63,995 nt of DNA, filler included, from Folioceros fuciformis (GCA_049999805.1; 5 parts of 5 records of this genome joined end to end with filler, not necessarily neighbours in it); one strand, 5' to 3'. Positions 4,361 to 34,500 are shown, numbered from the whole stretch's first letter. The notes: generated by a model not told the origin, from the sequence alone. Program-made: numbers and translations.

Positions 4361-4760
4361 ACGGTGGAAATCGATAGATCTAGTCTTGTCCGCCCGAGCA
4401 CGGGAAAGGACGGAAGAGGTGCTTGAGCCTTAGGCCAACGGAGCATGTAGGGAAAAATATTTTTACGATTGTCTTTTTTGTATTTTATTGAAATATTTTT
4501 GTGAATTTGTTCCGGTGTTCTTACAGCTTCGACGAAATGTCATGAGCCGGTTATTCTGGTATTTTATTTTGCTTCCATCCATGGTTACAGTTCTCGACCA
4601 TGGTTCTAGTCCTCAACCCTAAACAACTCCTTTGCCTAAGGGTAACTCAAGCTTAATGAGCCTTGGCATTTGTACCCACCATGCAGCTGAGCATGAGATC
4701 ATGCTCAGCTCATAGCATGAGGCCGCTTCTCTTTCTTTCCGGTGTTTCCCTCTCTGGGTT

Positions 4761-4885
4761 GAGAGGCATGAGGCCGACATCTCCCTCTTTGGGCTGAGAG
4801 GCATGANNNNNNNNNNGGCCGACATCTCCCTCTTTGGGCTGAGAGGCATGAGGCCGACATCTCCCTCTTTGGGCTGAGAGGCATA
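4761..4885. repeat. 35-bp minisatellite (gagaggcatgaggccgacatctccctctttgggct)
   Basis: Three to four tandem copies with a short N gap inside. Confidence 0.85.
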
Positions 4886-6179
4886 AGGCTGGCATGCCTC
4901 TCTTTCTTTTCGATGTCTCACTCTCTGGCTATGGGTGACCGTCGTCACTCCTCTCAATGGCTCCGTCTGCCTTCCTTTCACCGGCTCCCGATTGCGCTCT
5001 TCTCAATGCCGTCCATTCGCACTTGGTCACCACTTGGTCACCTGAATGTGGTCTCAACTGGTTCACCCATCCCATGATCTTGTTCCTAATGTGGGCGAAA
5101 ATGAACGTTTCAAGTATTTATAACTGACTTCTAATGCGATTCAGTTCTTAAGGAGACTTGCTAGGTATGATTGAGCAAGCGAGCAACAGTCTCTCCAATA
5201 TTGTGGTGTGAGCAAAATGGAATATTTGCCTCACTCTCAAGTGTAGACACCGAAGCCTTGCATCTTCACCAAGGAGCATTCGACATGGGCTATAGGCAAT
5301 CATCAAGGGACGATGAAAATGCATTCCTGCTAACCATGTAGGTGATTTTAAACTAAATGCTTGCTTTCATGCTATTGGGCTGCATAAGGGCACACTTGTA
5401 AGCACTAATTTAAGGTGTCGATGTTGCTTCACAAGGTCATGCCCACACTTTCTTTGGTACAAGAGGTTATGCACCATAGGCATCATGAGCAATTCTCGCA
5501 AGACATTGAAATGGTTCAACTTCTATAACTAGTGGGATGCAAAGAGCAAGTTAAGGTGGTCGCAAACTCTACAACTAATGGGATGCAAAGAGTAAGTTAA
5601 GGTATCTAATGCATGCTAGGTGAAACTATTTAGGACATTACTAAGGATATGAACTAGAGTGTTGATGGCAAGCGAGCTTTGGCTCAATTTAGATGCAATT
5701 TGAAGAACTTACAAAGGCTAGTTGAGCAGCATCCTCATCTTGTGGACCACATGCTGAAGGACTTGTTGTAGGTTTATGCAAACATTAAAGAGCATAGAGG
5801 CTATAAATATGGATGAGGGCTTGGCCATCACGCCACATATGGCCAAAAATGTGGGAGGGAATACTTCTAAAACGAGGAAGTGAGCATTTTGGGAATCTGA
5901 AGGGTAGAAAACCCAACACAAGGAAACGTCTAAAGACCTCTAGGATCTATGTAATGTATGATTTAAGCCTCCTCCATTAAAGGAGAAGTCTTTTTTTAAG
6001 GCAAGCTAGAGGTAGAGAAGTGGTGTTATAGCACTTGTTGTGAATCAAGTGTCTTCATAATTGAAAGCCATGTGTGCATGCTAGTCTATCACAAAGCATT
6101 CAAAATGAAAAGAATAGTGGGAGTTCGTAATCAAGTGCTTAGTGAATGAGTTGAGACCATAATCGTGTGACGGTGTACG

Positions 6180-6446
6180 AATGGACGACATTGAGAGTAG
6201 CATGGACGGGAGCCATTGAGGTGGTACTTACAATGACTTCTGGAGCAACTACCCTACTTTTAACAGAATAGACAACGTTGAGAGTAGCATGGATGGGAGG
6301 GAGCCATTGAGGTGCTACTTACAATGACTTCTGGAACAACTACCCTACTTTTAACAGAATGGACGACGTTGAGAGTAGCATGGACGGGAGGGAGCTATTG
6401 AGGTGCTACTTACAATGACTTCTGGAACAACTACCCTACTTTTAAC
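6180..6446. repeat. ~90-bp tandem repeat x3
   Basis: Units start at ~6180, 6268 and 6358 (aatggacgac(a/g)ttgagagtagcatgga...ctaccctacttttaac). Confidence 0.9.
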
Positions 6447-6769
6447 GAACGAAGCTTCGTTTTTGTTAGTACTACTTTCTTGCTGTTTTCTCGTAACACT
6501 GACATGCATATTTATTTATGCACCCAATATCTAGCTTGGGAGCATGTGACCGCCGCTCTACCTTCCTCTTTGCTACTTGGAAGATCACCGTGAGGTTGCC
6601 TGCTCTGATTTCTGTAAATCTGCCTAATCTATTTGTTGTGAAGTTGCACAATCTGTTTTTCATGGATTCGTTGTCCCAATATGGAATGCTACCAACTGAA
6701 ATGGTACCTGTCACAAGACATCTAGGTTACAAGTCCTAGCGATTTTTAAGCGTCGAAATCATAATAAGG

Positions 6770-8600
6770 CTACATGGACAAGCGAGAGCACTTACACTCT
6801 AATCTCAAAGTCCGAGGATGTATTGTATATATCAATCATCTTCATAAAGGAAATCTTGCCTGCCACCATTAGGACGCTATCACACTGAAGATTGTGCCCT
6901 CTTGCATGGGATCTATACCAACAGGAATACAATGCCGTTACAAAATGGACTCCCTCAAGAAGGACTATAAGCAGGAGAATAAAAAACTCAGCACTAAACT
7001 GTATGCTTCGAAGTGGGCTTATTGGGAAGATCTGCATTCCTTTATTGCAGACAATCCAAAGGTGGTCGGAATGCCTAACTCCCATGACCCAAGGTTTGTT
7101 GATTTAACTGCAATGATTGTTTGTGAAGATGTGGTATCTGGAATGGCATGTCTGAAGGTGTGTATGAGTTGATACACATTGACAACCCACCTACAAGCTT
7201 CCCTCCTACCTCTTCTTCTCCTACATCCCCACCTCCTACAACTCATGTAAGGAGTTCTACTCCGCCTCCCACGTCTAAGGACAATCACTCTTATGATTGC
7301 CCTCTTACCCAAGTTGCAAAGCTAAAAGGTGCTCCAGCTAGAAGGTTTTCAAGAAAACCAAGAGGAAGCTTTCGAGTGTTAGGATTGACAAGATAGCTAA
7401 ATCAATCAATAGTTTTGTAAAGATATGGGCAAGAGTTGAAGCTGTGAAGGAAGACAACATGCAAAGTATGGAGAAAGCAAGGTTGGAGAGTCTTCAAAAC
7501 ATGGAGAAAACAAGGCTCTATAAACCAAAGCATGAAGATTGTTGAACTCCAACAATTTACGCAAATAGAGCTAGCCAAGGTCTTGGTGCAAGCATCCAAG
7601 CGCACAAGGCAGGAAGAAGAGTATTACACAAAAGGGTTTCAGCACTAGCCACAGCTTTTGGTTTATGCTAGCTTTGATATTATCAGGTTTTTCCATAAGT
7701 TCAAGTATCATTCAGTCCTAACATCCATCATAAGTGATACACACCACTAGAATCAGCTTGCTTAGCTATGTAAGCTTGTGTTTTCATTTTTTTATTTTAG
7801 TGAACAATGGCCTCTGAAACAGCACTAGAAGTTCAGCCTTCTAAGTAGTTTGCTAAAGTTTCTACACATCTTCAAGTGCCATTCAATCCTCAATTGTGAC
7901 TTTAGTTCATAAGTGCTACACACCATTACAATAAGCTCGTAAAGCTCTACAAGCTTGTGTTTTCAAATTTCCATTCTAATAAACAATGGCTTCTCAAATA
8001 GTATTGAAAGTTCAACCTTCCAAGTAATTTGCTAAAATTTCTACACATCTTCAAGTACCATTTTGTCCCCAACTACGACTTGAATTCACAAGTGCTACAC
8101 ACCAATAGAATCATCTCACAAAACTTGACAAATTTGTGTTTTGAGATTTCCGTTGTAATGAACGATGGCTTCTCAAACAACATTGAAAGTTCAGCCTTTC
8201 AAGTAATTTGCTAAATTTTCTTCACATCTTCAACTACCCCGACCAAGCTTATACGACACCAAAGCAATAGATTTATCACATGGTATTGGTGTTTTGTGTA
8301 AGGTTCGTACCAGGAAATGTTGTAGTTGTTGAACAAAAAACATGCAAGTGGAATATGACATTCACTATTCTCTGTGTCAATGCTGATCTCTTCTTTCAAG
8401 ACCTTCCAAGTGCCAAGCTTGTATGTGTAGCTCTTCCCAAAGCCTTGTAGAGGATAGAGAACTTCCTCTAAACATGACTTCTACGTGTCTGCAATGGTGC
8501 CTAACGGTCGTATTCCATGAAGCCCGTTTGGCTCACTTTTGAATGTATACCATCCTTGTCACATATCCACATTTAAGCTGTTTTTTAAAAAACATATCGT
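6770..8600. mobile_element. Degenerate PIF/Harbinger-like remnant: trihelix Myb/SANT ORF (+, ~6770-7650) and convergent transposase C-terminal remnant (-, ~8320-8600)
   Basis: On +: W-T-S-E-S-T-Y-T-L-I...GNLACHH*DAI...TGIQCRYKMDSLKKDYK...WAYWEDLH (trihelix). On -: GTWKVLKEEISIDTENSECHIPLACFLFNNY, which resembles the Harbinger KGRWRIL...ACxxLHN tail. Confidence 0.55.
7690..8235. repeat. Degenerate ~180-bp tandem repeat x3
   Basis: A recurring block aatggc(c/t)tct(g/c)aaa...aagttca(g/a)cctt...tttgctaaa at ~7806, 7985 and 8165. Confidence 0.75.
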
Positions 8601-8859
8601 TTGGACATGTCGTGGACACCACACATAATCAAAAATGTTTAAACCAACTCAATCTAACTGAAACATAAAGTAGAAGACCGATTAAATTTTGCCTAAAAAC
8701 CGAATCCTCCTTCAAGTGCGCCGGTCTACCGGTGCACTGAACAGTGTGATTCACTGAAAAGAACTTGGCTATGTGCCTGCTATGAATAAAAAACCTTTAC
8801 CAATCACTTTTAAATAAAGGAATATTGTACCACAAACTGCAAGTATTTTCAAATCTTGT

Positions 8860-11800
8860 CTATATCAAGTCATGTACGTCTTGGATGACCTTAGAATCGA
8901 CAATTATCTCTACATCCTTCAAGTGCTAGCCCTTTGTGTCGCCGAAGTCGTCTCCTTCCACCTCAAGAACCGAGAAATGAGGATCGTCCACTGTCTGAGG
9001 CGGAAGCGTGCCATTCTCATCCCAAATGGTCATTGCATACAAATCTTCCGCTGGTCTGTCGTCTGAGTGAGTAATAACTTCACTGTTCTTCCCCAGCAAA
9101 CTGTACACCTGCATCCACCGATCCACGCTACCGTTGGCGCAAACTTCTTTAGCCCAAAACTTTGTGGGCCCATGAGAGAACGGGTCTATGCGGATTTCTT
9201 CATCAGCGTTTGGCAAAGAACCAAGGCCATTCACTCTCTACATCACGTATGTCATGCATCGTATATCGATGTCGATCGCGACAACATGCCTCCCCCTCTA
9301 AATAGCAGCCTGAAGGAACGATCCGGATCCTGCGCAGGCATCCACTACCCAGTCTCCTTCAACCGAAAACATGTTCACCAGCATTCCCATTAACCCCAAC
9401 GGCTTCTGATATGGGGAGACCACCATCGAATTGGCTGAGTGAAAAAAGATGTTTTTTCACGACAGCCCCATGCCTTATCACTCTCAGCAGAAGAAATCCT
9501 TAATTCGCAAATAAGGCTGCTTTGGTGGTATGAGCTTCCGAGTGGACTGCACTTCCAACTGTCAGGTACTCCACAGTCTCTACTGCCCCTGCATTTGGAG
9601 GAATGTTGGTCTTTTCCCAAACCAATGTCTGTATGGTGCCTTTCTTGCACCATGGCCTAAGTGCCTCTCTCGCCTGTGAGATGAGGTCAACCCCATGCAT
9701 GAGGACCACTCGATAAACATTGCTACTTGTGCATTCAAAAAACCCCTTGATCATGTCTTCAAGGTCCTTGCTAGTTAACCGCCTGTCATAATCATGTCGT
9801 TGGAGACCACGAGGCAAATCAGCGAACAATAGGGTATAAGGTCTCTTTACCAAAAATCCGCCCATCTCTAGAACACTTCTCTGCATCACTTGATATTTCG
9901 TTTTTTGGTTGTTGTTGGGGACTCTGAACTCTAACAAACCATCATCCATATCGACGTCTGCTAGTTTTTGCTTCTCCTCTTCTAAGCATTTCCAGTTCCT
10001 TGCTGAGTACACGTAATCCTGGAACGGCTTGGGCAACGATTCCAAGTCGTTTACATATGCAGGTTTCTGCCAACAAATATCTTCGTCAGCAAACTATGTT
10101 ACTTTCATTAGTCAAAGTGGCGCGACCGGCGAGTCAACCACCTAACCACAGAAGTTGGACAGTCCAGAGGTTGGCTTGGCTAGTGGCTGGAGTGCGCCGG
10201 TAGACCGGCGCATTCCAGCCAAATACTGTCATACAGACTGCAGTGTCTACCGCCGCACTCCAGCCAAATGCTGCCTAGAAGCAGCCACTCAGGCTGGAGT
10301 GCGCCAGTAGACCGGCGCATTCCAGCCAAATACTATCATACAGACTGCAGTGTCTACCGACGCACTCCAGCCAAATGCTGCCTAGAAGCAGCCACTCAGG
10401 CTGGAGTGCGCCAGTAGACCGGCGCACTCCAGACAGAGTCTCTACCTCAGTCTTTCATCAGGGCTGGAGTGCGCCGGTAGACCGGCGCACTNNNNNNNNN
10501 NNNNNNNNNNNNNNNNNNNNNNNNNNNNNNNNNNNNNNNNNNNNNNNNNNNNNNNNNNNNNNNNNNNNNNNNNNNNNNNNNNNNNNNNNNNTCCAACATT
10601 AGCTGAGATTCATGAAGCAACTGAAAGAAAACTTACCACTTTTGCAAAGGCCGTCTGGAATCGAAGAAGATTCGCGTCTTCAGTATGCTTGGGGTATATT
10701 TGCTCATCTTCTTCGAAGGTTGCGCATTTTAGAGCTATCCGGAACGCATGCTGTATCAAGTGAATCTTCTTCCTTTTGCCCACCTCTGCGTCCATGTCCT
10801 TTAGCTGGAGCTTCCCATGTATGACCTTCTGGGTTACTGCGGTGAGCATCTCCTCCCCTTTTGCACCTGCTGGAACTCCTTGAAAGGCCCTCCAAGGCCT
10901 GCCCTACATTGCGGTAACCTTTTTTGTGGACTCATCAGCCACATGGGTGCTATTGGAAGCTATGCCAGCTTCCCCTAGTTTCCTCTTCGCTTTCGCCCGC
11001 TTTTCCGTGCCCGTGCTCCCTCCTGCTACCTGTTCCGGAAGCTCGCTCCTCTCCCACATCTTAAAAATCCTGTTAACATTTTCCCACATGACTCCACTGC
11101 ACCTTGCTACCCGATATGGTAGTGTCTGCCTATCTACCATCTTCTGTACCTAGTTAGTATCCCTTGGGTCACCTGCCTCATCCGTCATCCCCAGCAACCT
11201 GTAGAGATTAAATTTCCACTTCATTGGTGGCTTCTCGTCCAGTCCATGGCTCCCGTAGAAAATATCCAACTCGTCATGGATGTATCTTACTTGCTTGATG
11301 AAGCCCATCCTCTTCTGTTTGTCCGCAAAAACATTGTGATCTACTGCGAGGACTCGCATTTCCTCATCCGTCAGGCCTGCATAAACATGCCCTTCCATCC
11401 ACTCGTATTTGTCCTTTGCTGGGTACATCTAATGCAGCTTCTACATAGCTGCAAAGCAATGGTTGCCCCCAAGCACTCCCATCTGGTAACCCTACTCTGT
11501 GATCTTCTCCAGCGAAACATCTTCCTTCTTCGAAACCTGTTTCGGATCAATCATGCATAGGAGAGGTAAAATACCTTCCTTCACAGACCCTATCTGCATC
11601 TGCCTGACCAGACACTTCATCCAGGCTTCGTCAACCTCACGAATTTGTGCATCTGCTGTTATATAACTTGCAGGGTGGAGGATATCCACATGAAGATCAA
11701 ATGTCATCGAGCAGATCCTTTTCGCATGCGCTTTTCTTCGAACAGCATTGAGGTAGTCCTCATCCTACGCAACCCTCTCCATCCGTTCAGCGTCTGTCTC

Positions 11801-12326
11801 TACTGTTTGGGGCGGCTCGTCGTCGAAAGTAGGCCCTTGAGCCTGCCGCCTATGTTTCTGCCTAGCAAAAGCCTTGTTGACAAGCCCTCCCAACCTGCTT
11901 TTCTTCTTCTAGGGTGAAGCTGCCACTGAACCACATCAGCTGTTACATCCGATGTCCACGACAGGAAACCAAACCAGACCAAATTGCAGACCGATTAGAA
12001 AGATACGCACCTGTGGCTCTTTTTCGAGACCTCGCAGGAGAGGTCGTGGCTGTCTTCTTCTTCCTTTGGATTGGGGCGCTGGTAGGCCGGGGCACCATCT
12101 TTTGCTTCTTCCTCGGTGGCGTCACCTCAACGGGCAATTTCTCTTCTTCTTCCTGTTCATCGTGTGAGCCTCTTCCAGCATCCAGTGCCTCATTGAGGCT
12201 GTCTTCGGTCGAGGAGTAACCACCCATCTCCTTCTCTTGGTGACTGCTCAGCTCCTCCACCTCACACAGTTCGTCTTCCAACAGCTCTAGCTGCATGCGC
12301 GGCATCTCCACCGGCCTCTCCGTCAC
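8860..12326 (-). pseudogene. ParB-like domain + beta-class N4-cytosine/N6-adenine DNA methyltransferase fusion (PF01555-like), inactivated
   Basis: Reading through stops: QIREVDEAW...VLGGNHCFAAM...VYAGLTDEEMRVLAVDHN (ParB/Srx-like), then LLFADLPRG (motif IV, DLPRG at 9820-9806), LVWEK, and SPYQKPLGLMGMLVNMFSVEGDWVVDACAGSGSFLQAAI*RGRHVVAIDID (motif X/I, ~9417-9265). A phase-0 GT-AG intron spans 10636-10067. Confidence 0.85.
10185..10491. repeat. 107-bp tandem units each containing the palindrome GGCTGGAGTGCGCCGGTAGACCGGCGCA(C/T)TCCAGCC
   Basis: Core motifs at 10192, 10299, 10406 and 10469, plus half-sites at ~10245 and ~10352. The array runs into the N gap at 10492-10591. Confidence 0.95.
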
Positions 12327-12628
12327 CCTTCCTGCGCTAACATCGAAATCTGTGAAGGTCGCAATTCGTTGGCACTCTTCGGCGATCCTGGATGCAAGGG
12401 CTCAGTTCTTCAGGACACAATCAGCACAGAATCACAAGACAACTGTCTTGTGATTCAGTGCCGATTTTGATCAATCACAGACAGAACTGTTCGCCTCCCT
12501 GTTACACCCATAAGATGCAAGTAATTAGGGTTTACGGTCTGCTGGGTTAATAAGCCTAAATAAGTAAGCAACAACAGCTGGGATAATTAATTGTTGGGTT
12601 AATAAACTGAAATAAATGATTAAGCTAA

Positions 12629-13374
12629 TCATATACAAACATCTTGCACATTCAGACAATCTTTCAAAGACGTTTTTTGCCACATCGGTTCACAGCGCCG
12701 TGGCACAGCTTTCGCAACATTGACCACAATCAAGCTGTGGCTATCGTAGTCATCGGCGATATGGCTTGGTGGGTGCTGCGTGCAAATGAAATTGACGTGT
12801 GTTTCATCTTCCACGCCGTCAACGGATGCATAGAGAATCCACCCAGACCTCCCTGCCTCATCGTCCGGCAAGCCTTGGAAACCGTTAATCCGCAGAGCCA
12901 TGAGCGGCACCCACGGCAAATTGTAGTCTTCTGGCTCCTCTTCGATCACTAAAAACCACTCTTTGTCTGTGTTGAACCTTTTGGCAAGCGTGTCTTCAAG
13001 TTCCTTTAGCTTCAAGCGCTCAACAAAGTTGTACGCATTTGGAATATTGTGGTTCTAACTATCGCCAGTGCTGCCACCCTGAGTCACATTCACAGGCACA
13101 TGTTAACATGAACCTCGCTAGCTTTGCTGTTCGAGGCACGGACGCTCCCTCCTGAATTGTCTTTCCTCAGTGCGAGAGCTGTTGGCTGTGGTGTAACATC
13201 TCCTACTGTGATCGCTGGTCGCCTCTGGTTTTCTCTCTCGACGATGGGGCCAGATGCAGCGCGATCTAAAGCTTTCGCCCCCTATCGTGGTTTCTTCGGC
13301 CTTGATGGTGCCTCCAATACTTCCATATCAATGGCCACATTCAGTTGGTTGTTGCTTCGCCGGCCAACTGCCAT
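12629..13374 (-). pseudogene. Unknown transposon-borne ORF (ORF-X)
   Basis: ATG at 13374 (MAVGRRSNNQ...), internal TAG stops and a frame change, then an open 128-aa globular-looking segment at 13015-12629. Confidence 0.5.
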
Positions 13375-13821
13375 CTTCGCCAACGCGTGAGAGGAAGTGA
13401 ACGAGAAAACTTGAGAAGACCAGAGCTGATGCAGAAGCACTGAGGAATGACTTAAGCATTCAACGAAAAGATTTAAAGTCAACTGTGAAGTTGAATGTGT
13501 GTTGCCTGAAATAGGCAGAGTGTTTGAACAATGTCCTCTGCATTTATGCCAGAACAACGATTAAAGGTGCCGTTCCCAACAAACAACAGCTACTTGATTT
13601 GGTGATCAAACGTTCATATCGAAAAGGCGGCTTAATTATGCCAGCATAACCTGTATTCAATGAGTGACGGTAGAATGCATCCTGCAAGGACGCTCCTTTG
13701 CGATTAATCAGTGCGACATTGGCATGGATTGGCAGGCTTCTTCCTCAGGCGACATGGTGCCTACGAAAACATCGGAGTTCAATTCTCAAGGTAGGCGACG
13801 ACTATAATTGAAGACAGGCAT

Positions 13822-16800
13822 TTGTTTGTTGAAGTTGAAAGTCTCATCTTCTTTGTTCGCGTCTTGCTGCTTTGTTCCCGATATTCAGAAGGAATCGACA
13901 TCGACTTCCGACTGTCTCCTGTACGTCTGAGTCTTCTGGATGGCATCCATACTCTGGAAAGCCCATTGCGAACCCAGTATCCTTTCACACCAGTGACTAG
14001 GAAAACAACACCTCTAAAGCAAAATGCGGATCTCACAATCTTGGATGGGGACTTTGATGATTCGGATGTAGAAGGAATTGCGAGTGGACATCGGGTACCA
14101 GGAGAGTCAACCGGGGAGCGCTTCCAGCCCAAAGCCAAAGGAGGGGATGTCATGGCCGTAGACGCTGTTAGGACGATGGGCACATCGTCGCGAAAAACAT
14201 ACAATCTGAAACCATCATCCGAGCCCTTGATTGAAGTTCCTGGAGATCATTGACGCAGCCGGAAGAAAAAAATCTCGACTATACTTGAGGAAAAGCGCTC
14301 TAAGATCCGCATTTCTGCAAATTACCGTAGACTATGTTGTGCAAAGCAGTGTCTTAGATCCTTAGGTAAACCAGGCTTTCGGGATTTGACATACTGATTT
14401 CTAAACCTGTGCAGGACAGAGCAAGAAATGTTTTTGCAGACCCTGTTTCATGTCAAGCGTACTTCAGATGGACGCTCGACAGCGGTGGCTTTTCTTATTG
14501 GATCTGTTAAGATACACTGTTGTCGGGACGCCTTTAAACGAGTTTTATGTATCGGTGCGAACAGGTACGAGGCAGCAAAAGAAAGAGCTTTGGATAACAT
14601 TATGTGGGTGGGCTCTGTCCATGCAGAAAAGCGCACCCGGGACCACGCTATGGCTGCATGTGTTTAGATGGATCAATTATTTTGCCTCTTTGCAGAACGC
14701 ATGCCAAACATTGAAGTGTACCATCTTCCTGACTCGTACACAAAAGAGGAAATTTTTATGGAGTACAAGCAGCAAATGCAACGGGCGGAACAGTACAGTG
14801 TCTTATACCTGTCAATTGTGGGCTTCACATTTCTACAAGGTGCGAACTCCAAAGACCAACAGGTTTTCGCTCTATACAACCTGCGATTACCTGAAAAGGA
14901 ACATCAGAGCCGAGTCTGATAAGAAGAAACAAGGTATGTGACCGCGTTTTTTCAGTTACGTTTCATGTAGGCATTTGAAGTGCGCCGGTCGACCGGCGCC
15001 CTTTGCTCCATCCTTCCCTGATAAGTGCACCGATTGACCGGCGCACTTTTTCTTCCCATTGATGTTGAGAGTGCGCCGGTAGACCGGCGCACTCCCCCTA
15101 TTTCGTATCCTTCAGTTTTTCTTGTGACTGCGCATTGCTGGGTGTGCGCCGAATATACCGGCGCACTGCTTCCACTCCTTCTCACAAAATGTAGGGATTG
15201 ACTGCTCTGTTGAAGGTGTGTGCTGGTCTACCGGTGCACACCCACCAGTTCACACACTTTTTCCTTATTCTTATGTGTAGGTCTTTGCTATTTTTTGTAG
15301 AGGGCTTTAAATCTGACTTGAAGCTCCATCAAAATAGACTGAAGGCAGAGCGTGAGAAGAGTATCAAACATCGGTTCAAATGTTATAGCGACCCCAGAAA
15401 GTACATTGGAATATCAGTGGGTGGTATGGATCAACCGAAGACTCAGTTGCCTTATTTCGTACGAGTACCCAAAGATTTGGCGGATGTTGGCCTCATTGAT
15501 GTCCATGTAGTAAGGTGTATAGTATACAACAAGACTTTGACACCAAAGCTCTTCATCGAGTTCGGCAACATTCGAAAAAATGGGAACTTAAAAATATCAA
15601 TTATTCAGGGCGTGATTCACGCGTACGAAGGCTTGCTTCCCGGAGTGCTATATTTGCAGCTAGACAACACGGCACGGGAGAACAAAAACGCGTTGCTATT
15701 TTCTTATTTCAATATGTTAGTGGAATAGCGGGTTTTTTTTAAGATAAAAGTCGGATTCCTACTAGTAGGGCACACGCATGACTAGGTTGATCAGATGTTT
15801 TCTAGGTTTTCAACGGCACTCGGTTGGAAGGAAGCTTTGACTTTACCAAAAATGATTGCAATTATGCAGAGCGCGTATACCCCCATGCCAGACGTTCAAG
15901 AGGTGAACGAGGTTCCAGACTTCAGAAAGTTTGTTTGGCCTATACCCTATGGGAAAGCAGGATATCAGAGTGTTGCAGCGGTTAATCAGCTGCATAACAT
16001 ATCGTTTCAACACCAATTTAAGGTCACAAAAGAGAGTCGCGGAGATCGTGGACCTGGTACAATTACAGGAGGAAAACAATATTCTACTGATCAATATTGG
16101 TCGCCTGATGAAGATATAGAACTCCTGAAAGTAGTTCTGGAGAGGAATATGAAAGCCGCTCCACTGATGCATCTGCAGGTGAGAAGTAGGAAACAAAAGA
16201 GTATTACGGACAATGTGCCAGGATATAATCTATTGCAGATTCGATCAAGATTGGAGTTCAAATTACGCCAGCACTTAGATCTGGGCGAAGACATTTGGTG
16301 GGATTCATTTTGGGCCAAGCAAGAGGCCATCGTTCAAATTATTAATTCGGGTGTAGAGCAAGACCTTGAGTGGCCATGGTGATGGTATAATCGTGACGAG
16401 GCAGAGTTGTTAAACACCCCGTTACTCGTGCCAGATGCTTTGGTATTGGAAAACCCACGGATACGAGAAGTTCCTAGAAGAGATATGTATGTGGGGCCAT
16501 ATAGAAGAGACGCACACGTTCGGAACGATGTTGACAGCTTTAGTGGAGATGTATCAAAGATCGAAGCAGGGCACATGATTGTTGTCCCATGCAAGACAGA
16601 CGTAGACAACAGGCCTTTTTGAATCGCCAAAGTGCTGGACACGCAGAAGGAAAATGACACTCAAAATATCACAGTCCATTGGTGGGTCACGAAATGTTCA
16701 GATGCATTTGAAGGCCGATATCAAGAGGAGATGATATTGCCGAATGAAGACCCTACCATGGGTTCTAGACGAGGACGTAAGCGACGGCCAAGCAGAAGAC

Positions 16801-16985
16801 TTCGGAAGCATATTGACACAATATCTGTCGCGAACACTTTTATTTTAGCGTATGGATTTGAGTTGACTCGTAAAAAACAGCTGCACGCTCGCACTCGAAA
16901 CCTTATCAGAAAGAACTTGTACGTGCTTAGGCGAGATCAAGAAAACCGTGTAGATGAACTTGATGACGACCTCGCAGAAACTTAG
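13822..16985 (+). pseudogene. Sola1-like (DUF7869-type) DDD transposase, inactivated
   Basis: CCAKQC, CCRDAFKRVLCIG, AERMPN..YHLP, LWASHFYKVRTPKTNRFS..TC, then catalytic-type motifs ISVGGMDQPKT (DGMDQ-like, D>G), LYLQLDNTARENKN and FLLVGHTHD*VDQMFSRFS. A phase-1 intron at 14934-15300 restores KKKQ|EGFKSDL. Confidence 0.85.
14980..15239. repeat. Five copies of the 22-bp palindrome separated by unique 23/24/51/51-bp spacers
   Basis: Copies at 14980, 15025, 15071, 15144 (1-nt insertion) and 15218, all inside the transposase intron. Confidence 0.95.
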
Positions 16986-17217
16986 ACTATACCGGTTAAG
17001 TACTTTCATGTATACCACACTTCGTATATATGAACACTATTTGCAAAGAGCTGTGGTTGGCTATTCATAAGCACCCTTGTGGGGGTGCTCATAGAGAGCG
17101 GCTACTTCGGCTTAACTGTGCACTAGCCTAACCCTAACTCATTTTGAATAGTTGTGGTGCACTTTCCCCAGACCTGATCTAGGTGTTCACCAGCTACTCA
17201 TTGCTTCACCGGAAGGA

Positions 17218-17291
17218 GTGCGCCGGTAGACCGGCGCACTTCTGCTGTCTTCGCGCCGGTAGACCAGCGCACTCCTACCGTCCAGGGTTAA
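17218..17291. repeat. Subterminal palindrome pair plus putative right terminus/TTAA target site
   Basis: gtgcgccggtagaccggcgcac (17218) and tcgcgccggtagaccagcgcac (17251), then tcctaccgtccaggg-ttaa. Confidence 0.7.
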
Positions 17292-18639
17292 ATGAGCGTT
17301 ATTGAAAAAGCTTTAACATTTTACAGTTTCAAGTAATTCTGATTTCAAAAAATATCATTCCGTCTACATGCAGACGGTAGTGTTAGACCAACCATGGAAT
17401 TGGATAAGATCAAAAAGTTTTACTGTTGGTAACTCGTAATTTCGGCTAGTTTCTGGATAAACATGACGAACAGACAATTTGGCGTGATCGTTTTTCCGTA
17501 GATTTGGGGGTAATCCACACCAAATAGCATGATTTCTGGATATGTGCCACCAAAAATGACGCAGAAAATGACCCTTTTTTTTTTTTTTTTTTTTTCGACT
17601 GTTAGGTGCAGACCTTGTCGCAAAGTCTCCACATGAGCACCACCTAAAGTTTCCAAAGCAGTGTGAACAGGACATGCATCACATTGTCATTGGATCCCAT
17701 ATAGTGTACATCATCTAAGTATAATGAATTTGAATACGACCTCTAAAACATTACCTAAAGCATATAGTACAACATAGGATCCATAACTAAAAATAACAAG
17801 ATTAGTATTAAAAAAAAAAAAGGCGAAAGGCTGTCGAGTGTGGCTCCCTTCAAGTATGCTTTGTCTAGGTTGCAAGACATGTTTTGTCTAGGAAAGGACA
17901 AAAGGGCGAAGGAAAGAGAGCAAACCCAAGCTGCCCCAAGATCGAAGAATGGTTTCATCTTAACTATAACTGATCCTACACATAACAACACACAACATAC
18001 TTGCTTTTTTAGGGTGCTCGGCGCATGGTGCGCTACAACTCCGTCCGGTGCCCAATATATGCGGGTTGCAAATAGACTGAGGCCTGCTGCATTTTAAGTA
18101 GGCCCTGAAAGGACAGGAGACTGAGCCATTGAGAGGAGCAATGAAGAATGCTCATTAAGAGCTTATTAAGTTTGCATTAGCATTAAGGGACGAACTAAAC
18201 AACCCCTCTAAATTACATGAGCCTATGATTATGATATCTTACTAAACAACCCCTGTAAATGACATGAGCATATGATTATGATATCTTATCTCCTCACCAT
18301 CCATGGTTATAATTGCTTTCCTCGACTCTAAACAATCGTGGCACATCCAGCACGAATGAAATTCCATAATTGAGCATCTCGGCAAAGAGTTATGTTGTCC
18401 GTGCATTTTACATTCAATTCTAATGGAAACTATATAGTATCTTATCATTGCCCGCTCTTACACAAACATATCTATAAGATTGTCATCTTAATTAAGCTTT
18501 AAGTTCATAGGTGAGCACAAGATGGTTTAGGAGATCAGATTTGTTCACCTCTACAGTCTAGGAATTTGCAGATAGACTAACGCCTTACACAGTTGCGCGT
18601 GCAAGTGCGTACTCTGGATGTAGCTTGAGCTACGGATAA

Positions 18640-19275
<636 letters not shown>

Positions 19276-21041
19276 TGAGTGATATATGTTAAAGACATTT
19301 TCAAAGGCCAAGGGCCTTCAATGTGATTTATTTTAGGGCCCCAATGATCTATGTTTGACATACAAGAGATATAACTTATATCTCTTAAACCTATATACGT
19401 TAAAGGTATATTTTTTTTCCTTCTGCACTTTGGATTGTGCTCTTTGCTAGCTTTAGAAGGCTGACTTTGGATGCGAGGGGGTGGTTTAGAAGGTGTTATG
19501 CTTGCATCCACCCATCTTCTGCTCGCGCTCGGAGATTTGGAGGCTTCAATAGTTGCATGCACATACATTGGGAGACAAATTGCTACCGCATCACTGCACC
19601 TCAATGGCCTATGGTATACCTGCCTACATGTGTGGGACTGAAGATGGAGAGCATGGCGTGTTGTGCTACCAAAGCTGGGTGTAGAGTTGCTAGTGGTGTG
19701 CGTTTTGCTTTGCTTGTGTAAGGTGGCGCGCTTCCCGTGATCGCAGCTACAACCAGTTATGTTTGGCCTCTTGGATTTGTCCCCTTTGCTTGATGCTTGC
19801 AGCATGAGTCCCACCCCCTCTCGCATTCCCACTATTGGTCTCTACCCATTGAACTACTGATGGCCTTGCTTTGTTGCTTGCAAAACCGCTTGTTGCTGCT
19901 GAGCTGGATTTGTCCAAACCCCCCTTCCCCCATGTGACCAAGTGTCCTCTATGGAAATTGATGATGAATTATAAGCAATTGGAAAGGCATCAAGACATGA
20001 GGTGTACAAGATGGAGGAGATAGTGGCTGAGGAACAGTGAGTAGAGGCTTTGGCTACACAAGTTTTTGTACAAGGGGACCCTTCTTCTAGGGGTGCAAAG
20101 TATATACTTGCCGGTGGAGCAGATGAAGAAGATGCCATGCAATGCAATGAGCTTGCATTGCATGGCATCTTCTGGGGTTAGCAAGGTCGTGGATCCATAG
20201 CTTAGGGATGAGGTAGCTGTGAGCTCCATTTCATTCCTATCGGAGGGAGGGAAAGCTGAAGTTATCTATGGAGTCGTCTCGCTAGCCTAGATCCCTTCTA
20301 AAGTTGTTTTGCAGACGAACGGACAAGAGGCTCACACCCCCCACGTTGCTAGGCATCAACCCTATCCAGCTATACAAGGCGATCCAATTGGTGATGGCAA
20401 GCAAGCTGGTGGTGACTGTGAGGAGTTGGAGGGCACGAAGTGCAAAGGTTTCAAGCAATACGACCAACATAGTGTTTGAAGAGCCCATAAATCAACCCGG
20501 CTCGCCAACTCTACTAGGGCATATGAGACAGATCCAAGCTCAACCTTAGTAGGCACCTTAGCAAGGCAAGAGAAGCGAGAGTTCTCGTTTTCAGCAAAGA
20601 TGTCTCAAGTCGGGCCTCAAGCCTTCAACAAGGATAGTGCCATGCACTCATTGACTTTGCAATATGCAAAATTACAAATGGTCCTTCGATTTTGAAGGCT
20701 CTCTACGATGCGGTGTAACTGTTAGGGTTTTGTTACCTTAAGTAGTTATAGCCCCTTTCACTCGTTATTTATCCTGTGGACTGTTTTATCAGCCATAGAT
20801 GCCTTTTCATTTTTAGGGTTTCTAGGGATATATAAATAGGCTCTTAATGGAGAGATAATANNNNNNNNNNNNNNNNNNNNNNNNNNNNNNNNNNNNNNNN
20901 NNNNTTAATTAATTAANNNNNNNNNNNNNNNNNNNNNNNNNNNNNNNNNNNNNNNNNNNNATCACAATCAGTAATAGGACTATATCTAGCACTGAACATC
21001 AAAAAACCACCATCGATGCGGTGAACATCGGTAAAACCCAC

Positions 21042-31560: not shown

Positions 31561-34500
31561 TGTCAGGCTATGCTGATTAATTAGGCTAGATAATCATGTA
31601 GGCTACATAATTTGGCTGGCTATTAAATAACCAAAAAATCAATAAATATGGAAAGTGTGGGCATAGTTAGGGCAAGCCTGTGAGCGAGGCGTGACTGGGC
31701 CAAATGGGCGAGCGATGATTGAACATGGGTGACGAAGAGCGCGGGGCATCATGTTGTGAGATAGCTGTGAGATTGAGATCGTGGGTGGCATGGCACCAAC
31801 GGCGTGGAGCGAGAAAGACACATATGAATATTGAGCTGTTAGGCATGGCTGAGTAGTTGCTAGAAGCTGTCGGGAAGCCTACCATGGAAGTGTGGAGCTA
31901 AACGCTTTTGAATGTTGCTCACAAAATGTTGTGGCCTGATGTTGAACTTTCTCAATTGAGGACGACATGTTTTTGAACGTGTTGCTGCGATTGTGAGTGT
32001 GCGTGTCTACTAGGGTGTGTGTTTGAGCATGACGATGTGGATGGCTCGCTGGTAGGGTAGCATGGAACTTACTCCACCTCATTACAATCGCATCTACCAG
32101 GGGCATGGTCTATGGATCTATGGAGCACACGATGCTAAGTAGATTTGTTTTCAAGAGATTGCGAGTTGGAAGGTGTTGTGGCGGTCGTCACATTATATTC
32201 TTGGTAGGGTGTTTGTAAAGCTGAAAATGACTATAGAAAGCACAAGCCGAGTCTCCCAGCATGGCGCTACTGCGATCTCACTGTGACGCTTTCTTTATTT
32301 AGAATTGTTAGATGTGCGTGATAGAACGCTAGGGCGTTTCCTCACAAGACGTTGTGTTGGTTCTCATTTACTTCTAGCAACTACTCCTTGTGGGACTTGA
32401 GTGCGACTGAGCTTGGAGGAGGAGGAGGTGGCCACACACCTACATCAAGGCAGCATCACCCCCGACCTGCCAGCTGCAGAAGCATTGCAGCTACAACAAC
32501 GTTGACCTAACAATTGTGTAGGGCTACCAACCTTCTATGGATCATAGCACCCGCGTTACACTAAACTGCTTGCCTTGATAAGGCAAGTCTATTGGTATGA
32601 TTTTTATTTGATTTGGAGTTGTATTCAAGGACTAATTGCATTTGGAAGTTTAGAAGCAAGGTTTTGCTCTCGCTACATTTGGTCACACTAGGAGCTGCAA
32701 TCTGGGTGCGTCTTCAAGCTTTGCCATTTGCATTCCGAGCATGTGCTAGAGTTACATTGAAGTCTCAGAGTGTAGCTAGGCTAGGCTAGATTAGAAGGGA
32801 GCATAGACTCCTTGTGTGCAGGCTTGGCAAAACCTACATGCTGACTTTGAGGACTCATGTGTCACTATGATGAAGAAGTGGTGTGAGTCTCTACCATTTT
32901 CCTAAAAGTAGATTTCTTCCTAGTTTCACATGTCTTTGTATGGGGCTTGCCATCGGATGGAAGTGATGAGGAGCTAACATACTTTTTGAGCAGCAGGATT
33001 ATTCCTTGACAGCCTCGGATTCCCAAGAGCAGAGTGTGATGATAGCAGCCTACTACGCCTAACATCTCCGTAAAAGAATCAAGGGAGGTGACTGACTCCG
33101 TGACTGCTCAAAACCAAGGTGCCTCGAACTCAAGTGGAGTTGGGGAAGAGCTCGGCACTGCTGAAGCTGTGGGAGTGGGTTGGTCACCCTTGACAACCAT
33201 TGTCGAAACTATGGGCGGGGCCACAAACTTCAAAGAGGATGGTTCAAAGGAGTCTGATACCATGAAGGGAGGTGGAACAATTGTCCACAAATCTGAGAAG
33301 TTCTTGGGTAGGCCAGGAACGCAGACTCTTAGGGATTTCAAACTCTTTTATGGTTTCTTAACTAGTTATGTTAAGTTTAAGCACGATCATGCTTAAACTT
33401 ATCGGTACATGTTTAAGCAATTGCCGGGTTATTTGGCTGATGAAGCTTTGGACTTGTATGAGATACGTACACCAGAGATGCTTGCAGTGGAGCAAAGGCC
33501 TAACCCAACTTACATAGCAGTTCTACAGGTGGTTTACAATGCCTTGCTGGCTGCAACTGTGTCTAATCATCAGGCAGCTATAGCAGTAGGTACAGTGTCA
33601 GCCACAATGGCACAACCAGCAGTAGTAAACATGACACCTGAAGAGATGGCGACCACTATAGCTGGGATTCTGAATATGCTAGATGTTCCTAAGCATGAAA
33701 ATCCAATGGAGGACTTCTTTGCAATTCTGGACAAGACATTCCCTACAAAGACATCAGGTAAGATTGCCGAGCTTGTAGCCTTTGCACGCAAGAAAGGCAA
33801 GACTAGATGGCAAGAAACGCAAGACCAGATGGCTTTCAGTACCTACAGAGGTTAAGGGATGCCACGAGTATGTTCACTGATCAAGAGGTAGCAAAAAAAT
33901 TCTTGGCTACCTAGGAAACTGATCCCATGTTTCACTACCAGCTTTTTACAACATTGGTTGACAAGTATGGGGATAATTACACGCTAGATCAGGTTTACCT
34001 AGAAGTAGAAAAGAAGGAATTAGCCTTCTCAACGTATGCCTCCAAGCATACCAAGGCCTTTGCGCACTACCAGCACATGTTCTCAGGAAAGGGCAATGTA
34101 GCAACAACACAGGGGGCTGCCACCAAGGGTAAGGACACCAAGCCAGTCAAGGCTAGGGTAGCAGCCATCGTGACTACACTTTGCAACAAGTGTCGTAGTG
34201 TTGAACAACTCTTACCTACGTGCAAGATGGAGTTTGATTCCTTGCATTGCATCCATTGCCAGAAGCAAGGCTATGTGGAAGTAGTTTGCTTTCAAAAGCA
34301 CCCAGAGTGCCAACCTAGGAAAATAGGGGCAGGATCTAGTGCTACAACAATTGCTAGAACTGGAGCTTCTAGGGGAGCCTCAGCGGGAGCATCCGTAGGA
34401 GGGGATGCCATCAGCAAGAGCAAGGCAAAGCTTGACAAGGTCAAATAGAAGGCTGCTGTTCAAGCAGACAAAATGACTGCCTTGGAAACAGCCATGGCTG

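Follow-up and report, generated by a model that had tools for sequence, protein, structure and literature searches.

The 63,995-nucleotide (nt) stretch analysed here, referred to below as the window, comes from the Folioceros fuciformis assembly GCA_049999805.1 and consists of five parts joined end to end with filler; all positions are counted from its first letter. Its minus strand carries, between 8860 and 12305, a gene broken by stop codons that encodes a predicted ParB/Sulfiredoxin (Srx)-like domain, a helical linker and a beta-class DNA methyltransferase. A first-pass annotation had proposed such a cryptic gene, and both the gene, with all the motifs quoted for it, and the proposed architecture are recovered here by a PF01555 match, an AlphaFold2 model and fold searches. 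About 2 kb from the start of this gene, head-to-head with it on the opposite strand, lies a gene for a putative transposase of the DUF7869 type, and both genes are contained in a repeated unit of about 9.1 kb. In our view 8860-12305 very probably holds the accessory gene, dead in this copy, of a two-gene DNA transposon that is bounded by terminal inverted repeats (TIRs) and has many diverged copies in a hornwort-like genome, a reading that extends to a possible self-marking role for the intact family. The element and its two genes comprise the following features.

8490-17619, no strand assigned: copy of a multi-copy DNA transposon, about 9.1 kb, placed by contig depth, skipping contigs and TIR-like ends; ends good to within a few tens of bases
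8487-8512, plus strand: left TIR-like sequence, recognised by eye against the reverse complement of 17595-17616
17595-17616, minus strand: right TIR-like sequence; shared words GTCTGCA and CCTAAC[G/A]GTCG
8860-12305, minus strand: ParB/Srx-methyltransferase accessory gene, a pseudogene in this copy (frames, read-through, Pfam, phmmer)
12011-12305, minus strand: predicted first exon, acidic at first and then with basic clusters (PPRKKQK, RKKK, SRKR) resembling a nuclear localisation signal (NLS), in frame 11943-12401; start ATG at 12305 and donor GT at 12010-12009 inferred from the sequence
11926-12010, minus strand: inferred short intron joining the N-terminal frame to the ParB frame in phase (GT 12010-12009, AG 11927-11926)
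11309-11725, minus strand: ParB/Srx-fold domain (AlphaFold2 model and fold searches)
11456-11470, minus strand: GGNHC motif, read directly
about 11333-11383, minus strand: YAGLTDEE...LAVDHN (GL at about 11372-11377; N of DHN at 11333-11335)
10637-11308, minus strand: helical linker, with helices at about model residues 152-263
10094-10636, minus strand: likely spliceosomal intron, phase 0 on both sides (GT 10636-10635, AG 10095-10094; homolog P0069 colinear across the junction)
9500-10093, minus strand: N-terminal half of the methyltransferase, an intact frame of 197 amino acids (aa), with motif IV DLPRG at 9806-9820
9442-9447, minus strand: homopolymer run with a copy-specific 1-nt insertion (frameshift); one letter missing at 9442 in other copies
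8860-9456, minus strand: C-terminal half of the methyltransferase and acidic tail (PF01555; aligned with P0014, P0024 and P0027)
9400-9417, minus strand: SPYQKP, read directly
9319-9342, minus strand: motif I DACAGSGS, read directly
14398-16988, plus strand: DUF7869-type putative transposase gene, a pseudogene here (PF25273), divergent from the methyltransferase gene

Stop-to-stop frames and read-through translation follow the accessory gene on the minus strand as one frame from 11908 to 10637 with six in-frame TAG codons, then as the intact frame from 10093 to 9500, terminated by TAA at 9500, and, after a change of frame, from 9456 to 8860. TAG codons stand at 11765, 11492, 11441, 11429, 11150, 10904, 9298, 9238, 8926 and 8860, and no TGA occurs; either of the last two may be the natural stop, the choice being ambiguous because the acidic tail is not conserved. 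The breaks consist of nine internal TAG codons, the TAA and one 1-nt insertion, to which a tenth internal TAG (11909-11911) would be added if the inferred upstream intron is real. The insertion is the frameshift that the first-pass annotation had located at about 9440-9457: in the A-run, one letter is missing from all four contigs of a DNA run with the same species label, X1 (depth 89.5 of 89.5), and at a depth of 97.8 out of 158.4 in a second run, X2, and the extra base is therefore private to the window copy. This copy is a dead pseudogene that yields no protein. The larger intron holds an assembly gap of 99 N (10493-10591) together with a tandem array of a 22-nt palindrome discussed below, and basic N-termini like that of the inferred first exon are also found in relatives of the protein. 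A further run, X4, guessed to be RNA, gave a single contig at 17478-17560 and none over the ParB-methyltransferase gene.

The C-terminal part belongs to the PF01555 family, which is matched by the read-through of 8860-9456 over profile positions 163-216 of 221 (E 5.4e-9; 36.8 bits, the cut-off being 26.7) as well as by its uninterrupted 52-aa frame (E 3.2e-6, 27.7 bits). Motif IV lies upstream of motif I on the coding strand, which is the permuted order of beta-class enzymes that had been read from the sequence in the first pass. A profile of the family matches M.MboIIA (4.4e-5), M.RsrI, M.BceJIV, CcrM, DpnA, rotifer N4CMT (0.013) and M.PvuII, its D-a-P-y-G being aligned to the DPPY of M.MboIIA and M.RsrI and its PYQKP...D-x-x-GSG to the motif I region. 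The Rossmann-like methyltransferase fold was assessed on the closest intact DLPRG homolog, P0014, rather than on the broken sequence of the window; its AlphaFold2 model has a predicted local distance difference test score (pLDDT) of 63.6 overall and of about 80-96 in most of the core. Foldseek places this model closest to CcrM (3.1e-12) and MboIIA (7.3e-12), followed by HpyAVI, BceJIV, RsrI and then N4CMT (1.6e-10) and PvuII, with 184 chains at E<=1e-3. Rotifer N4CMT is thus a weaker match than the adenine enzymes in both the profile and the fold comparison.

The motif IV aromatic residue, which stacks on the target base, is replaced by Arg in the window. The first-pass annotation had left this between decay and a family trait. 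Since DLPRG recurs in seven database proteins of the closest subgroup (P0008, its cluster-mate P0069, P0014, P0022, P0024, P0027 and P0052), the residue is a conserved trait of one sub-lineage and not a sign of decay in this copy. In 16 other family proteins the motif is D-[FAIVL]-P-[YHFC]-G, and among 80 related metagenome loci, 45 of which could be read at this position, it is DIPYG in 39, DIPHG in four and DVPYG in two. The DLPRG lineage keeps the S-adenosylmethionine (SAM) loop and PYQKP. Asp occupies the first position of motif IV in the window and in all relatives inspected, and no Ser-type motif was seen among them.

The N-terminal domain is predicted to have a ParB/Srx fold, as structure prediction and fold searches agree. 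An AlphaFold2 model of 10907-11764, built with X at four stops and 45 homologs, reaches a pLDDT of 85.4 and a predicted template modelling score (pTM) of 0.67. Foldseek ranks 1-11 for this model are ParB, Noc, KorB and PadC proteins, followed by sulfiredoxins, with probabilities of 0.95-1.00 and E values of 1.4e-3 to 1.1e-2, which narrowly miss the 1e-3 line. VIA-align, run against 48,161 chains, returns members of the ParB/Srx superfamily in all of its top eight rows over model residues 14-152, namely PadC (Z 9.1), KorB (8.6), the ParB-N domain of pNOB8 (7.3), SerK (7.2), two sulfiredoxins (7.1 and 6.3), SbnI (6.2) and Atu1540 (6.0), the next row having a Z of 4.9. Residues G99, G100, H102, G130, L131 and N144 of the model are nearly invariant across homologs. 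Partition-type ParB carries an Arg-rich nucleotide-binding box. In the present family the loop reads GG-[NGTQ]-H-[STC], and the first-pass suggestion that the Cys of GGNHC came from Arg finds no support in the corresponding column of 45 aligned homologs (29 S, 4 C, 4 G, 3 T, 3 L, 1 Y, 1 Q, 0 R). With no basic residue after the His, nucleotide binding of the kind found in partition ParB or sulfiredoxin is therefore not implied. The helical linker is conserved in relatives (38% identity in P0003 over query 143-429), and its fold matches are weak and not significant (Z 3-5), several of them being to winged-helix or helix-turn-helix (HTH) proteins.

A word-indexed homolog search with the 803-residue read-through gave no match. 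Exhaustive phmmer searching returned 64 proteins at E<=1e-3, 22 at <=1e-10 and two at <=1e-30, the best at 1.5e-44 with 38% identity. The ParB-like and the methyltransferase domain occur together in full-length relatives, for example P0009 (789 aa). Among 29 family proteins that were looked up, 13 are named, and all 13 are streptophyte nuclear proteins labelled 'hypothetical': eight cluster representatives from Chara braunii (plus one further member), two from Adiantum nelumboides, two from Riccia sorocarpa and one from Ginkgo biloba. No Ectocarpus protein is among these 13, and no prokaryotic protein is among the named matches of the exhaustive search. One of the Chara braunii proteins, P0004 (1825 aa), shows the ParB-like motif twice and a motif-IV-like site two or three times (DFPYG, DLPYG), either because one gene model merges a tandem pair of family genes or because the gene is truly duplicated. 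The named hosts, together with the hornwort-like window, are streptophytes outside the flowering plants and conifers, all with flagellate sperm; this pattern could be due to chance, database bias or the history of the element.

The second gene of the unit is recognised by PF25273 (DUF7869), which matches the read-through of 15195-16988 at E 3.8e-44, and its frame is interrupted by three TAG and two TGA codons. The window protein is 32-39% identical to intact relatives, and the blocks DGMDQ, QLDNTARENKN and GHTHD are invariant in all six aligned DUF7869 relatives. The window frame (15195-15728) has VGGMDQ where five of five intact relatives have IDGMDQ, so that a conserved Asp is lost. Proteins with DUF7869, annotated as 'hypothetical', are widespread and occur in multiple copies in ferns, liverworts, Chara, a prasinophyte, molluscs and amphioxus, and a protein atlas search with the plain DUF7869 open reading frame found only DUF7869 and eukaryotic clusters. 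The conserved D...D...GHTHD-type motifs, the wide distribution in eukaryotes in multiple copies and the location of the gene in TIR-bounded units together suggest that DUF7869 is a transposase. No publication naming DUF7869 or such genes in land plants was found in the literature covered, which was partial and leaves absence unproven.

The pairing of the two genes is conserved beyond the window. In the 80 related metagenome loci, tblastn detects the ParB-linker part in 37 and a DUF7869 homolog in eight (L002, L005, L020, L027, L029, L043, L052 and L067), with E values down to 2e-91 and 32-34% identity in the long matches. Where at least 4 kb are available upstream of the ParB start, four of five loci (L020, L027, L029 and L067) have the same divergent layout and L022 lacks it. 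Both genes of locus L027 are moreover flanked by TIRs of 37 nt, 97% complementary, whose arms lie 7520 nt apart. The Riccia sorocarpa ParB-methyltransferase R1sor_010796 and DUF7869 protein R1sor_010795 have neighbouring locus tags, and the contig given for each is of the same length. The closest relative of the window transposase, P0238, and the DLPRG fragment P0052 both derive from a Logan contig of 9089 nt, and this common source is a hint of pairing, not a proof.

The extent of the repeated unit was derived from DNA contigs of runs with the same species label placed on 4500-18500 at >=80% identity, 2205 from X1, 2325 from X2 and 2202 from a third run, X3. Depth in X1 and X2, summed over contigs and no measure of copy number, amounts to 6-16 in the left flank (4500-6834), 41-812 over 8236-17575 and 11-31 beyond 17576. 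One contig in each of X1 and X2 joins 8451 directly to 17620, skipping 9168 bases and having 38 other letters between. The block of raised depth and the skipping contigs show that both genes belong to one repeated unit of about 9.1 kb. They place its ends at about 8.45-8.49 kb and 17.62 kb, and for this reason an alternative placement of the ends at an inverted repeat (4948-4980/18106-18138) was dropped. The intergenic frames 12629-13054, 13282-13560 and 13779-14253 and the N-terminal exon gave no Pfam match in the parts scanned, and tblastn found no relative of them in the 80 loci. Run X3, from the same sample as X1 and X2, differs in that its mismatches are almost only C>T (583) and G>A (675), against 27-154 in every other class; it looks like a bisulfite- or enzymatically converted library and might reveal cytosine methylation of the element.

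Within this unit, and nowhere else in the 64-kb window, occurs the 22-nt near-palindrome GTGCGCCGGTAGACCGGCGCAC, with 11 sites at <=3 mismatches, all in 8716-17272, and none in shuffled sequence. The copies are grouped as follows.

8716-8737, minus strand: left subterminal near-palindrome copy, 22 nt, in the opposite orientation to the right-end copies
10192-10490, plus strand: four copies (10192, 10299, 10406, 10469) in a 107-nt tandem array in the methyltransferase intron, cut by the assembly gap
14980-15239, no strand assigned: four copies (14980, 15025, 15071, 15218) within or beside the gap separating the transposase frames, from the repeat search
17218-17272, plus strand: two right subterminal copies (17218, 17251), from the repeat search

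In relatives, the space between the two genes holds palindromes of a different sequence: an 8+4+8 palindrome occurs five times in L067 (4103-4304), and L027 and L029 have one palindrome of 41-46 nt each. Single contigs join the palindrome clusters to one another (10491-15068, 15095-10624 and 17241-15066), which could reflect either derivatives of the element with internal deletions or joins made at the repeats during assembly.

From these data we propose how intact members of the family could work. The element would encode a DUF7869-type putative transposase and, head-to-head with it, a nuclear-targeted ParB/Srx-linker-PF01555 fusion. ParB-family proteins classically bind palindromic sites, and the ParB-like and helical part of intact copies might dock on the palindromes of the element itself, a step whose chances we put somewhat short of even. 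Once docked, it would bring the methyltransferase to the transposon DNA. In the D-x-P-Y-G lineages the predicted enzyme would most likely write N6-methyladenine (6mA), given the Asp-type motif IV and given that the nearest solved structures are adenine enzymes, and the resulting methylation could mark or shield the element or time its transposition. The DLPRG branch may have changed its substrate or taken on a non-catalytic function, and the chances that it still methylates DNA are about even. A bolder version, which on balance we regard as fairly unlikely, would make the intact family an element-encoded, self-addressed epigenetic writer in land plants, with ParB-like docking on the 22-nt palindromes as a eukaryotic analogue of parS and a fused enzyme laying a mark other than 5-methylcytosine (6mA, possibly N4-methylcytosine, 4mC) to escape or modulate host silencing; the DLPRG lineage would then have rebuilt its base pocket for a new substrate or turned into a reader. 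If this were true, DUF7869 elements would form a widespread class of two-gene transposons, and their cargo would explain the patchy reports of 6mA and 4mC in non-seed plants.

Several observations weigh against the reading of the locus as a self-marking, TIR-bounded transposon. A target-site duplication is unreadable at the ends of the element in the window and at those of L027, the ends are approximate, and the contig depths are sums that do not count copies. A Pfam scan of the N-terminal read-through matched 0 families, ParB included, and the homolog P0005 gave only PF08775, at E 0.16; the residue after the His of the GG-x-H-x loop is Ser, Thr or Cys in the family consensus and never Arg. 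For DUF7869, neither sequence nor profile searches gave a relative that is solved or named, and no other Pfam family was matched. The transposase was not seen in 72 of the 80 related loci, which is uninformative rather than contrary because most of these loci are shorter than 5 kb. The two introns, any expression of the gene, the methylation activity of the family enzymes and their target base, most likely giving N6-methyladenine, are predictions. Finally, the window has no palindrome between the two genes, unlike L027, L029 and L067, and the palindromes could equally be binding sites of the transposase.

The last point leads to the competing explanation that survives best, namely that the gene is a transposon accessory gene with another mechanism, in which the palindromes bind the DUF7869 transposase and the ParB-methyltransferase acts on host chromatin, on the excised element or, in the DLPRG lineage, as a non-catalytic binder of DNA or SAM. 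It is in keeping with this that the subterminal copies are mutually inverted (8716 against 17218 and 17251), like transposase-binding repeats, that contigs join the palindrome clusters (10491 to 15068, 17241 to 15066) as deletions or assembly joins would, and that Arg has taken the place of the base-stacking aromatic residue in the DLPRG lineage. However, clusters of the palindrome are also found well within the element, beside or inside the accessory gene, the palindromes of relatives are in the promoter-side space between the two genes, and palindromes are the classical targets of ParB proteins. The same idea has been put forward for red-algal elements (Petroll et al., 2025, in the portion of the text available). 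We hold this explanation as a tentative one, with a minor though appreciable share of the probability.

Far less likely is an endogenised fragment of a virus (a giant virus or a virophage/polinton-like virus) or an insertion of bacterial or phage DNA in place of a cut-and-paste transposon. ParB-methyltransferase fusions and ParB-terminase loci are typical of phages, as can be gathered from the accessible part of Iyer et al. (2016; PMC4738411), and the methyltransferase domains of P0009 and P0014 match 574 and 256 phage records, respectively. The matches to phage records are confined to that domain, at 21-37% identity, and none of the 574 records covers >=80% of P0009. The exclusively streptophyte nuclear origin of the 13 named proteins among the 29 looked up also speaks against a viral source, as does the repeated unit itself, which is only about 9 kb long, has TIR-like sequences at both ends and introns, and contains no capsid, polymerase or terminase frame.

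Equally improbable is a cryptic host gene of phage origin, adapted to eukaryotes and either functional through read-through or recoding of TAG or only recently lost, for although nine of its ten internal stops are TAG (P about 0.013 when transitions are modelled crudely, at equal rates, on the CAG, CAA, CGA and TGG codons that remain) and a GT-AG intron and an NLS-like N-terminus would suit it, the gene also has a TAA and a frameshift missing in other copies, the unit is multi-copy, its transposase itself carries TGA and TAG stops, and the TAG sites align in relatives to different residues. These are G; S/K/R/Q; A/L/K; K/T/N; L/K/Q; and L/A/S, and as they vary from site to site no single recoded amino acid fits, so that TAG as a sense codon was dropped. 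The intron proposed in the first pass remains likely, as part of a transposon cargo instead of the phage-derived, eukaryote-adapted host gene then envisaged. For the excess of TAG among premature stops (nine of ten in the methyltransferase gene, three of five in the transposase gene), no compositional trace of context-specific deamination emerged: the element showed no CWG depletion and no TAG/CTA excess against the rest of the window, and CHG-context deamination as its source was dropped as unsupported.

The surroundings of the element are nuclear DNA of a plant-like eukaryote, since the window contains genes for a 1-Cys peroxiredoxin, CDC48, an FG-nucleoporin and an exostosin-like protein. 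The peroxiredoxin shows 89% identity to the protein of the hornwort Nothoceros aenigmaticus and 76-79% to proteins of liverworts. Right of the element, a partial second copy of CDC48 is found, with 300 nt (18770-19069) 95% identical to 1105-1404; the frame 18640-19278 encodes an altered CDC48-like protein and is probably a pseudogene fragment or a captured piece. The sequence left of the element (4948-8451) is rich in repeats. It includes the left arm of a 33-nt inverted repeat (4948-4980/18106-18138), 91-nt tandem repeats at 6202-6474 whose units are similar to that inverted repeat, and 179-nt tandem repeats at 7728-8264. Over 6835-8235 the depths of the contigs add up to 29-76. The element appears to have inserted into another repeat, of which a paralogous 'empty' version exists. 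Further along, two adjoining plus-strand frames at 33397-34448 gave no significant match in a Pfam scan; the second has a Cys/His-rich stretch (C-x2-C...C-x-H-C) like the zinc knuckle of a retroelement Gag.

Transposons that carry their own DNA-modifying enzyme together with a sequence-specific docking domain have only recently been noticed, in brown and red algae. The present analysis extends this class to streptophytes (the hornwort-like window, Chara, Riccia, Adiantum and Ginkgo) and links it to the uncharacterised Pfam family DUF7869 as its likely transposase. The contrast between DLPRG and D-x-P-Y-G offers a natural active-site variant for comparison, and the self-marking hypothesis becomes directly testable in tractable plants. 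The family also calls for caution in annotation, as its genes, annotated as 'hypothetical' or 'DNA methylase N-4/N-6 domain-containing' host proteins, might be taken for host writers of 6mA or 4mC.

Compared with known systems, the methyltransferase part resembles the beta-class enzymes M.MboIIA, M.RsrI, CcrM, M1.HpyAVI, M.PvuII and N4CMT in its fold, in the order of motif IV before motif I, in the SAM loop and in the PYQKP-type motif. It departs from them in that the second residue of motif IV, a Pro in those enzymes, is hydrophobic throughout the family (D-[FAILV]-P-x-G) and, in the lineage of the window, in having Arg for the aromatic residue; the family moreover adds an N-terminal ParB/Srx domain, a long helical linker, introns and an NLS-like N-terminus. 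Another prokaryote-type DNA methyltransferase of the beta class is known in a bryophyte: the Marchantia genes MpDN4MT1a/b are, in the part of Walker et al. (2021; bioRxiv 10.1101/2021.02.12.428880) that was available, host genes expressed in sperm with the motif TSPPY. The first-pass annotation had linked the window gene to MpDN4MT1 and N4CMT. This link is not supported, since those enzymes carry TSPPY and this family has D-x-P-[YHFC]-G or DLPRG. By motif, MpDN4MT1 is an N4-cytosine-type host gene, whereas the present gene is Asp-type transposon cargo, and the two are not classed together for that reason.

The ParB-like part shares its fold with the ParB/Srx superfamily (ParB, Noc, KorB, PadC, sulfiredoxin, SerK and SbnI), and its GG-x-H-x loop lies at the place of the phosphate-binding loop. 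It is set apart by the lack of a Pfam ParB match, so that of the two matches expected in the first pass PF01555 was obtained above its cut-off and ParB/Srx as a fold only, and likewise by Ser, Thr or Cys after the His, by having no clearly recognisable ParB-type HTH or dimerisation domain and by its fusion to an enzyme. Relative to partition-type ParB, its candidate sites are the 22-nt palindromes near the gene, four of the 11 lying in its own intron, and it might bind them. The combination of domains is also that of phage ParB-methyltransferase fusions, to which similarity is detectable in the methyltransferase domain alone. Iyer et al. (2016; PMC4738411), as far as the text was accessible, describe phage methylases linked to ParB and, in chlorophytes and chytrids, a Dam-like family fused to ParB-HTH, and the accessible part of Bao and Jurka (2013; PMC3627910) has no bearing on ParB-methyltransferases.

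The closest parallels come from algal transposons. In red-algal Plavaka elements, Petroll et al. (2025; bioRxiv 10.1101/2025.02.11.637652 and Curr Biol, available in part) describe two accessory genes, PAG2, with a PF01555 methylase and a SET domain, and PAG3, with a ParB-like domain and a 2-oxoglutarate (2OG) oxygenase, as well as tandem inverted-repeat arrays beside PAG3. These elements share with the window a DNA- or chromatin-modifying cargo borne by a transposon, a ParB-like domain and inverted-repeat arrays next to the ParB gene; according to the same partial text, they have ParB and methylase on separate proteins and an EnSpm/Plavaka carrier, whereas here both are fused and the carrier is of the DUF7869 type. 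In the brown alga Ectocarpus, a protein with ParB-like and N4C/N6A methyltransferase domains lies opposite the transposase of Sola1-1_Ec32, and self-binding and self-modification have been proposed for it in the available part of Dinatale et al. (2025, Genome Biol; PMC12477816). One polypeptide with ParB-like and N-4/N-6 methylase domains, encoded by a DNA transposon on the strand opposite the transposase, is also the arrangement in the window, with DUF7869 as the likely transposase, and that available part makes no mention of a DLPRG variant. Compared by description only, theirs is an element of 21.5 kb with a protein of 1104 aa in a brown alga, and the present one is about 9 kb long in a hornwort-like land plant. 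The feature described here is thus a further case of transposon ParB-methyltransferase cargo already known from Ectocarpus since 2025, and what is new is its reach into land plants, the DUF7869 partner family, the candidate docking sites and the conserved Arg variant of the catalytic motif.

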